A DNA stretch of 64,000 bases from a virus. The notes beneath the pieces were generated by a model that saw only the letters and a program-made list of their open reading frames with translations, was not told where the DNA came from and did not search any database. The first letter of the stretch is position 1, and the number at the start of each line of letters is the position of its first letter. A program made the translations under genes and the position numbers. The stretch spans positions 754-64,753 of the IMG/VR virus record IMGVR_UViG_3300031576_000038. One strand, written 5' to 3'. Below are positions 52,265 through 53,867 of the stretch, one piece after another.

Positions 52265-53867
52265 CTAGTTGCGGACGAAGTCAGCCATGACCGCCGGCGC
52301 GGACGTGTCGAAGCCAACAATGTCGAGCATACCCGCATCGTCCGGGTCCGCGATGGTGAACTGGTTCGCGACCATGCCCACAACAATCAGCTTCGCCGGG
52401 ATGCCCATCTTCTGACGATACTCCTTCAGTGCCTGGACCGGGTGAATGCTGCCGGCCCAAGTTTCCGAATCGGTGTAGACGACGAAAGCGTCCGCCTCAA
52501 TCTTATTCTGAAGGGCGTAGACCATCGGCAGAGAACAGTTGGTGCCGCCCATCGGAATGCGACTCACTGCGTTGACCGCAGCGTCGAGACGCATACGCGG
52601 ACTGATGGGCACTTCAACCAGGTGATGGCTGAAGCCGAAGATGTGGTGCTGCGATTCGCTTGCGGCCGTGATGAGGGCCATCGCGGCGCTGCCGATGCGA
52701 GGCGTGATGCCGGCCATGCCAGAGATTTCCGGACCGCTCATGGAGCCGGACACGTCGAGCGCGAGCAGCCAACGCTTGTTGGTCGGCTCGATGGCCTTGA
52801 ACGCCAGATAGAATGCCGAGTCGAGCGCGTCGGTCACCTGTTGCACGCGGGTCCAGGACAGCTTGCCCTTCTCGCCGTGGCCCTGGTTGTAGGTGTTGAG
52901 GGCCACAAGAAGGTTCAGCGGGTGGATACGCGCCTTGTGAAGCTGCTGCGGGTCCGTCAGCCGTTGGACAGCGTAGTTCGCCGCCTTGGAGAGCGGAGCA
53001 ATCAGGCCGATAGACGACATCTTGCCGAGGTTGCGGATGAGCGCGGTCAACGGCATGTCTTCGAGGAGAGCTTCCCATACGTCCTTGTCGTTCAGGAACT
53101 GCGTCGGGATGCACTCGCGCACGAGACGGTAGTCGCGGATGAGGCGGATGATTTCCTTCGAGGATGTCGCTCGCTTCGCCCGCTCGAAGGCCCAGATGGG
53201 CAGAAGAGCTTCCTGGTCGTGCGGCTTGTCGCCGACGTTCTCCCAGCCCTTGGTGACATAGTGAGCGATGGTCTGGAGGTCGCCTTCAAAGCGCGGGTGA
53301 GCCAGGCGCAGCAAGTCTCGATGAGACCAGCCGTCGCGCTGCTGATACTTCGTGACCTGGTAGGCCACGTCGCGCGGGTTCTTCGTGCTGTACCACTCGC
53401 CGATGGCGCGGCGCAGACCGCGACCCCCAACCACGAAGCTCGTTGCACGCAGCAGCGAACTGGAACAGGTGCGTGCCGATGCGACACACTTCCTGGGCAC
53501 CGGTCAGTGCGGCCGACTTGGTTTCCTCGTTGCCAAAGGTTGCGGCCAGGGCCAGCGCGAAGATGGCCGGGTCGTTCTTCGGAGCGCGACCTTCGCGAGA
53601 GACGGCGATGATGCGACGAACTGTTTCGAGACCGTCTTCCTCAATGCACTTCAGGACGCCCTTGGCGTTCTCCTGGGTCAGCTTGCGCTCTTTGGCGTAA
53701 TAGCTGCCGCCTTCGGAGCCGAGGATGAGGAAGCGTTCGAGACGAGTGAAGTTATCGACCTTGAAGCTGTAGCCGCCAGCAGAGTTCTTCACCTGCTTGC
53801 TGCCCGGAATCTTCTCGGACTGCGGGGTTCGCTTTGTCGAAACGAGAGATGCGTAACGATTCGCCAT
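52265..53867 (-). pseudogene. rsr: Ro60/TROVE (Rsr) ribonucleoprotein homologue with C-terminal vWA; apparent frameshift at C5/G5 run near 53424-53428
   Basis: N-part frame (53286-53867) carries FTRLERFLILGSEGGSYYAKE, FALALAA and CRIGTHLF. C-part frame (52265-53500) carries GGRGLRRAIGEWY, KYQQRDGWSHRDLLRLAHP, MPLTALIRNLGKM and the MIDAS motif LALDVSGSMSG. The two frames join at a GGGGG run. AGGAGG RBS sits before 53867. Confidence 0.65.

Follow-up and report, generated by a model that had tools for sequence, protein, structure and literature searches.

A phage Ro60 gene interrupted by one surplus base and the adjacent array of putative Y RNAs, including a tRNA-shaped class

In this study we analysed a Ro60 (Rsr) gene and the RNA elements that accompany it in a 64,000-nucleotide stretch of viral DNA (IMG/VR record IMGVR_UViG_3300031576_000038, positions 754 to 64,753), referred to below as the window. 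Bacterial Rsr proteins have been described together with their Y RNAs, namely Yrn1 and Yrn2 of Deinococcus radiodurans, and YrlA and YrlB of Salmonella Typhimurium and Mycobacterium smegmatis (Chen et al. 2014, PMC4201824). A bacterial rsr-rtcBA RNA-repair operon is also known (PMC4201824, PMC7790460). YrlA has a tRNA-like part of permuted order: both termini of the RNA lie at the Ro helix, the T arm comes before the D arm, and a loop closes the acceptor stem (PMC4201824; Wang et al. 2018, bioRxiv 10.1101/312249). Phage-encoded Ro60 with Y RNAs has already been published, for example phiRo60 of the Thermus phage phiLo with Yrl1 and Yrl2 (PMC12135203; see also PMC4201824). The initial annotation of the window described Ro60 orthologues as uncommon in phages, which overstates their rarity, since 356 of 50,697 phage records encode one. 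Most of these are annotated as “Ro-like RNA binding protein”, a name used in cluster C mycobacteriophages and in Gordonia and Streptomyces phages.

The window locus shares with the bacterial systems the same TROVE plus vWA_Ro60 protein, putative Y RNAs that lie beside the gene on the same strand and contain the bulged helix GGGC-CGA / CUUGCCC, and (reminiscent of the rsr-rtcBA operon) RNA-repair genes in the vicinity. With phiLo and other phages it has in common that Ro60 is phage-encoded and that Y-like RNAs are located directly upstream. Unlike bacterial rsr, however, the window gene is borne by a phage and is frameshifted. At least 11 predicted RNA partners stand against the two Y RNAs named per species by Chen et al. 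(2014), which suggests that the array is unusually large; it is also much larger than those of the reference phages. The Ro60 proteins of the latter are at most 48% identical to that of the window, which is closer to bacterial (59-70%) and vertebrate Ro60. Moreover, the reference-phage genes are almost all contiguous (353 of 356, a contiguous gene being defined as a single match covering at least 80% of the protein).

The Ro60 gene and its surplus base

Two open reading frames (ORFs) were confirmed on the minus strand, ORF-A (53867..53286, 193 aa) and ORF-B (53500..52265, 411 aa), with an overlap of 215 nt. The Pfam domain TROVE (PF05731) begins in ORF-A (profile positions 1-122, E 1.3e-9) and is continued in ORF-B (positions 133-351, E 4.8e-35), which also contains the complete vWA_Ro60 domain (PF25045, positions 1-165 of 165, E 1.6e-67). 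Because the domains run on from ORF-A into ORF-B, the two frames are consecutive parts of one protein, and the occurrence of a split Ro60 as such a pair of frames is far beyond chance. Removal of a single base restores an ORF of 533 aa. The earlier proposal that two minus-strand frames together form a complete Ro60, with TROVE similarity in both halves, is therefore upheld by the ORF coordinates, the division of the Pfam matches and the repaired protein.

This repaired protein could be aligned end-to-end with solved structures of Ro60 from Xenopus (1YVP, residues 12-533, E 6e-151) and human (9NEN, E 5e-148), as well as with D. radiodurans Rsr (2NVO, E 1e-121). The bit scores obtained with the Xenopus (506) and human (497) proteins were higher than that for D. 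radiodurans Rsr (410). Thousands of full-length Rsr proteins from bacteria and metagenomes are 59-70% identical to it, the upper value being that of the nearest intact relative (P0001, 70%). The vWA part carries the MIDAS motif DVSGS(MS). Judged from these comparisons, the gene represents, beyond reasonable doubt, a Ro60 (Rsr) orthologue with TROVE plus vWA architecture.

The conservation of the two halves is nearly complete. Aligned with 118 full-length homologues, the repaired protein retains all 62 invariant columns and 135 of the 138 columns conserved in at least 95% of the sequences. Residue 443, next to the MIDAS Thr, is N in the window protein and D in 116 of the 118 homologues. Identity to the nearest relative is 68% in the N-terminal and 71% in the C-terminal part, much as in the comparison of that relative with the rest of the family. 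No second lesion was found in the 533 codons of the repaired gene. Since there is no further decay, the extra base is either very recent or not real.

The site of the lesion could be defined exactly. On the sense strand, the junction reads CGT GGT TGG GGG TCG CGG TCT and lies within a conserved R-G-W-G-R motif. The homologous loci read at this position (seven in total: the closest relative, with 70% protein identity, and IMG/VR phage contigs) all encode the motif as TGG GGN CGN, whereas the window has TGG GGG T CGC, i.e. one surplus base. The initial annotation placed the junction at a GGGGG run, and the run at 53428..53424 is indeed the only G5 in the gene. It should be borne in mind, however, that the 533-aa frame is restored equally well by removing one G or the T at 53423. 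The surplus base could thus be the T after the run and not a G within it, and “homopolymer slip”, although plausible, is only one of two equivalent descriptions. The alleles conceivable at the junction would read TGGGGTCGC, TGGGGGCGC and TGGGGGTCGC. The window Ro60 is a family member by sequence and a disrupted copy as written, with its reading frame interrupted by a +1 frameshift at 53428..53423.

We consider it most probable (a probability of roughly 0.55) that the lesion is a real and very recent insertion in the sampled phage population. According to this interpretation, the Ro60 gene would be the protein half of a phage Ro60-Y RNA ribonucleoprotein module, and a fresh one-base insertion in the R-G-W-G-R codons would have broken its reading frame. 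Translation from 53867 as written would yield 148 correct residues followed by a nonsense tail of 45 residues, and the Ro60 ring could not close. The intact module would presumably work like bacterial and phiLo Ro60, with Y RNAs bound to the outer face of the ring. The Y RNAs may tether or gate Ro60, probably towards a host exoribonuclease such as PNPase.

An alternative is that the shift is programmed, as the initial annotation suggested as one option, or at least tolerated. A P-site tRNA-Gly could slip from GGG to GGU at UGG-GGG-U and allow the production of some full-length Ro60, perhaps in a dose adjusted to the many Y RNAs. A slip at exactly the GGG codon would bring back the consensus R-G-W-G-R protein, conservation of the downstream frame is complete, and the G-rich run itself could, by its sequence, weakly resemble a Shine-Dalgarno element. 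The comparative data nevertheless oppose such a role, as none of the seven homologous loci read at the site has the shift, while five further relatives' loci and the best protein matches listed are full-length gene calls, and the contiguity of the reference-phage genes points in the same direction. Neither does the context of the site favour slippage. UCG, the 0-frame codon in the A site, is frequent (10.6 per 1000), the 0 frame continues for another 45 codons without a nearby stop, and re-pairing of the GGG reader with GGU would create a mismatch at the wobble position. Predicted RNA folds downstream of the site and spanning it (z -0.5 and +0.6, respectively) are no better than those of shuffled sequence, and no separate Shine-Dalgarno sequence precedes the run. 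Compared with +1 frameshifting of the prfB CUU-UGA-C type, the likeness is a matter of arithmetic only (a one-codon +1 shift restores the protein), whereas conservation, a stop or rare 0-frame codon, a properly placed upstream Shine-Dalgarno stimulator and a downstream structure are all missing here. Quadruplet decoding of GGGU was considered and rejected, as the only phage tRNA-Gly (UCC, 46909..46833) has a normal 7-nt loop, CUUCCAA. A G5 tract is also far shorter than the runs known for transcriptional slippage. All tests were thus negative and the lesion is not supported as a recoding signal; we regard programmed frameshifting as very unlikely.

A naturally split gene, whose N-terminal (~148 aa) and C-terminal (~350-385 aa) parts would be made separately and assemble into the ring, appears hardly credible. 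Gene callers do predict two products, of 193 and 349 aa. However, the called second start (TTG at 53314) would remove about 37 conserved residues, the nearer candidate starts (GTG 53500 and GTG 53433) lack a Shine-Dalgarno sequence, the tail of ORF-A is nonsense sequence, and no split Ro60 was seen among the relatives listed or examined.

Of the three options offered initially, recent pseudogenisation and a sequencing indel therefore remain, and the preference for a real allele over a consensus error is inferred. If the consensus is at fault, the true phage genome is one base shorter at this point and encodes an ordinary intact Ro60 of 533 aa. The features of the locus agree with this explanation: the lesion is a single base in or beside a G5 run, both halves are perfectly conserved without a second defect, and the partner RNA array is intact. 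The window lies within the ENA contig ERZ27247320:k141_3047316 (194,118 bp), and the same split products are on record in three assemblies: this MEGAHIT contig (194 kb), a Logan contig of SRR8536157 (123 kb) and the JGI/IMG contig (64,753 bp). The JGI C-terminal product (P0122) differs from P0002 only by translation of the TTG start and does not represent independent evidence. Recovery of the same allele by three different assemblers speaks against a consensus indel, and so does the k141 contig name, which suggests a short-read MEGAHIT assembly; homopolymers of five bases are not error-prone on short-read platforms. Within 28 kb of intact genes of the window, moreover, 11 further G5/C5 runs are all in frame. 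A second frameshift was not found among the same-strand overlapping ORF pairs screened (five pairs were tested against Pfam, and DnaB has both domains in one ORF), and a generally error-prone assembly was rejected for this reason. The in-frame runs and the lack of another split gene argue against an error-prone consensus, although a single error would still be compatible with them.

Several observations weigh against a real insertion. The three assemblies are 100% identical over 13-20 kb (the window contains the ENA and Logan loci letter for letter over 13 and 20 kb) and may all go back to one read set or library; their agreement therefore excludes an assembler quirk, without excluding a systematic error of the reads or an effect of the majority allele. 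No near-identical strain with an intact allele was found in the collections searched, in which no relative is closer than 70%. A degenerate pattern designed for the junction in its intact as well as its shifted form, which does match the window, gave no match in metagenome_contigs, a collection that lacks the source contig. Finally, a pseudogene with zero decay beside a preserved RNA array is equally expected of a sequencing error. Taken with the points listed above, this makes a consensus indel a somewhat unlikely but serious alternative to the real insertion that we prefer. The frameshift alone is of little import: it warns that this copy may be non-functional or wrongly sequenced, and it should not be taken as an example of phage recoding.

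The RNA array and its tRNA-shaped members

The main interest of the locus lies on the RNA side, in a large Y RNA array and a recurrent class of tRNA-shaped Y RNAs. The adjacent RNA elements had been singled out at the outset as making the locus notable, and they turned out to be more remarkable than the frameshift. The 1.5 kb that separate Ro60 from the upstream vWA gene (55381..53868) contain no called gene, and we predict that they encode at least 11 partner RNAs, comprising at least seven canonical Y RNAs and four tRNA-shaped ones (Table 1). A phage lineage absent from the reference phage collections thus appears to devote 1.5 kb to these RNAs. If Ro60 binds Y RNAs through the bulged helix, its candidate ligands are encoded alongside it.

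The motif RGCCG-N10-11-NTTATC occurs nine times in the array, always on the Ro60 strand, and only once in the remaining 62 kb of the window. The simple units are folded into a 6-bp closing stem (NNGGGC/GCCCNN), a bulged C-G-N, an 8-bp upper stem and an apical UUAUC, with z-scores down to -4.7. Their consensus (53888-55375, minus strand) is NNGGGC-CGNNN-[8 bp]-UUAUC ... CUUGCCCNN, with strong covariation. This layout is that of the Ro-binding helix of metazoan Y RNAs (GGUCCGA ... CUUGACC, then GUUAUC), and the resemblance accounts for the sub-threshold matches to nematode sbRNA in Rfam. No curated Rfam Y or sbRNA family was matched at its gathering score; sbRNA (RF01656) reached only 28.4 and 21.4 bits (gathering score 38).

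A covariance model (R2) was seeded with four units and rebuilt from 18 units of the window and its IMG/VR relatives. In the 18-unit alignment, which is fitted to the model and so favours structure, 95.6% of the cells are paired and compensatory changes occur in 11 of 14 pairs; none of 500 shuffles was as good, and slid controls were only 35-46% paired. With filters off, R2 detected seven units 5' of Ro60 at E<=0.05 and two weak ones, with nothing comparable elsewhere in 51000..58000. All window matches at E<=0.05 are on the Ro60 strand, at most 1.5 kb upstream of the gene. The matches at the loci of 11 relatives are likewise on the Ro60 strand, with two to eight units beside their Ro60 genes. 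As a control, two to three Y RNAs of the published kind were found upstream of Ro60 in the phages Catera and BearBQ. Two stretches of the array lie outside the assigned units: 54951-55087 (minus strand), which contains GAGCCGAUUAUC and several hairpins, and 54066-54158 (minus strand). Consensus promoter and terminator matches at the locus were not above the expectation from shuffled sequence.

The most intriguing elements are those shaped like tRNAs. Three of them are full-length matches to the Rfam tRNA model (positions 1-71, 47-52 bits), with inserts of 58-87 nt in the anticodon region. These inserts are Y modules of permuted order, composed of the 3' strand of the upper stem, an internal loop, UUGYCC, a cap hairpin, GGGCCG, a bulge, the 5' strand of the upper stem and GUUAUC (or GUUCUC). 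The predicted shape has a 7-bp acceptor stem with free ends, a D arm followed by a T arm, and a long anticodon arm bearing a capped Ro-binding helix. A second model (R3) was built from seven tRNA-shaped Y sequences. It recovered members not used for training in five relatives (L003, L004, L005 with two, L012 and L013; 56-82 bits) as well as a fourth member in the window (68 bits), while ordinary tRNAs scored at most 47 bits. When the members are compared, pairing amounts to 86% in the upper helix, where compensatory changes affect 8 of 8 pairs, and to 88% in the lower helix. The design recurs beside Ro60 in seven other contigs, both phage-like and bacterial-looking.

The possibility that these elements are intron-containing tRNAs was rejected. 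The T3 insert is at the canonical position 37/38, but those of T1 and T2 flank an anticodon-like hairpin on either side, and the Y motif, together with a covarying helix, is present in all inserts. In T1 and T2, the cap loops (CUCAUAA and CUCAUAG) resemble a CAU anticodon loop.

With YrlA, the tRNA-shaped RNAs of the window share a tRNA-like D arm, T arm and acceptor stem fused to the Ro helix at the position of the anticodon stem. The topology, in contrast, is the opposite: they would end at the acceptor stem, have the D arm before the T arm, and have the Ro helix closed by a cap loop. The permuted order of YrlA is directly visible in the BearBQ control. By this predicted topology, they are the un-permuted counterpart of YrlA. 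There is, in our estimation, about an even chance that they constitute a tRNA-shaped Y RNA class of their own, encoded in the window and at no fewer than seven other Ro60 loci, that YrlA could derive from such a form, and that phage Ro60 may handle or mimic tRNAs during infection; the frameshift would then be incidental. The grouping of four tRNA-shaped RNAs with seven or more ordinary Y RNAs in one array of 1.5 kb, next to RNA-repair genes and a tRNA/tmRNA block, suggests such handling or mimicry. No description of the un-permuted topology was found in the literature searched, the 2020 Annual Review on bacterial Ro60 being outside its scope, and the novelty of the class is accordingly probable rather than certain.

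The free acceptor ends predicted for these RNAs would make them potential substrates of RNase P as well as of the CCA-adding enzyme. Natural tRNAs with a Ro-binding anticodon arm would bear on the question of how YrlA arose from tRNAs and on the role of its tRNA-like domain. Their sequences could be used to study whether Ro60 binds them, whether RNase P processes them and CCA is added, and whether they may serve as decoys against host defences that target tRNAs.

Table 1. Features of the Ro60 locus (window coordinates, unless a contig of a relative is given)
Feature	Position	Strand	Support
Y RNA, simple stem-bulge-stem	55306..55375	-	R2 E 2e-7; sub-threshold Rfam sbRNA
Y RNA, simple, followed by U run	55229..55299	-	R2 E 4e-9; z -4.0; Rfam sbRNA 28.4 bits (gathering 38)
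tRNA-shaped Y RNA T1, degenerate Ro-helix motif GGGAC, cap loop CUCAUAA	55088..55221	-	Rfam tRNA 48.4 bits, 75-nt insert; R3 105 bits (training sequence); folds
tRNA-shaped Y RNA T2, arm UUGUCC...GGGCCG...GGUUAUC	54806..54950	-	Rfam tRNA 47.5 bits, 87-nt insert; insert alone folds as bulged helix; R3 105 bits (training)
Y RNA, long apical insert, weaker match	54706..54804	-	R2 E 0.024, filters off
Y RNA, long apical insert, weaker match	54578..54699	-	R2 E 0.048; minimum-free-energy (MFE) closing stem AUGAGC/GCUCAU
tRNA-shaped Y RNA T3, Y module in place of anticodon loop	54438..54567	-	Rfam tRNA 51.6 bits, 58-nt insert; folds; R3 87 bits (training)
Y RNA, simple	54370..54436	-	R2 E 2e-11, training-derived; z -4.7
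tRNA-shaped Y RNA T4	54159..54271	-	R3 67.6 bits, E 2e-15, non-training
Y RNA, simple	54001..54065	-	R2 E 5e-11, training-derived; z -4.7
Y RNA directly 5' of Ro60 ribosome-binding site, U-run end	53888..53982	-	R2 E 9e-4; MFE closing stem GUCGAGC/GUUCGAC
Shine-Dalgarno-like AGGAGG, 7 nt 5' of Ro60 ATG	53875..53880	-	Read from sequence
Ro60 N-terminal in-frame part, codons 1-148, ATG 53865..53867	53424..53867	-	TROVE 1-122; collinear with Xenopus and human Ro60 from residue 22; 68% identity to P0001 over residues 1-147
Frameshift site GGGGGT in TGG-GGG-T-CGC	53423..53428	-	Comparison with homologous loci; one-base removal restores frame
ORF-A out-of-frame tail, 45 codons and TGA	53286..53422	-	Tail without homology; same bases in +1 frame match Ro60
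Ro60 C-terminal part in +1 frame: TROVE remainder, vWA_Ro60 with MIDAS DVSGS, stop TAG 52267..52265	52265..53422	-	Pfam; 71% identity to P0001; 385 stop-free codons
Structured element just 3' of Ro60: two D-arm-like and two T-arm-like hairpins, one 8-bp closing stem (CUCGACGU/ACGUCGAG)	52132..52251	-	Sequence and fold
tRNA-shaped Y RNAs beside Ro60 in relatives	L011:1317-1441, 2710-2864; L012:4005-4126, 4305-4427, 4527-4634		
tRNA-shaped Y RNAs beside Ro60 in relatives	L004:3237-3383; L005:6397-6520, 6600-6726; L003:2191-2311; L013:351-477		

Genomic surroundings of the locus

The window is part of a large phage with a T4-like replication set (DNA polymerase, DnaB-like helicase, UvsX-like recombinase and ribonucleotide reductase), and nearly all of its genes are on the minus strand. 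No close reference phage was identified, nucleotide identity being at most 70% and Ro60 protein identity at most 48%. The neighbourhood of Ro60 encodes an RNA ligase, an AAA_33 kinase-like protein, a NUDIX hydrolase, a sigma factor, a GroES homologue and an SPFH protein. The first three, which are of RNA-repair type, are located within 10 kb of Ro60 (59999-60496, 57703-58104 and 63555-63977, minus strand). RNA ligases are also found near Ro60 in relatives (L011:11380-11650; L013:10921-11656). Two vWA proteins with a MIDAS motif (LDRSGSMSS) directly flank the Ro60/Y RNA locus (55382-56434 and 51480-52106, minus strand); a vWA domain is also found at the C-terminus of Ro60.

At least 15 conventional tRNA genes and a tmRNA are present in the window. 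A block of 14 tRNAs (38951-49048, minus strand) shares the strand of Ro60 and is situated 3-14 kb downstream of it, together with the tmRNA (43887-44245, Rfam 67 bits). An additional R3 match of 99 nt (48040-48138) was not called as a tRNA by either ARAGORN or Rfam.

The 120-nt element just 3' of Ro60 (Table 1) contains D-arm-like hairpins (GUGU...GCAC) and the T-arm-like sequences GGGGUUCGACUCCCC and GAGGUUCGAUUCCUC. It gave no Rfam match at E<=1 and no ARAGORN match, and its folding has no energetic support (z +0.5). A hairpin, GAGCC-UUCG-GCUC (52252-52264), precedes it.

Another observation concerns the DNA polymerase, for which phrog_405 was matched by two ORFs 1.8 kb apart (profile positions 42-614 and 631-1078), with an ORF for an RNase_T/DnaQ-like exonuclease between them (180-1841, 2645-3430 and 3649-5652, minus strand). 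This division could reflect a split or multi-subunit polymerase, or an insertion.

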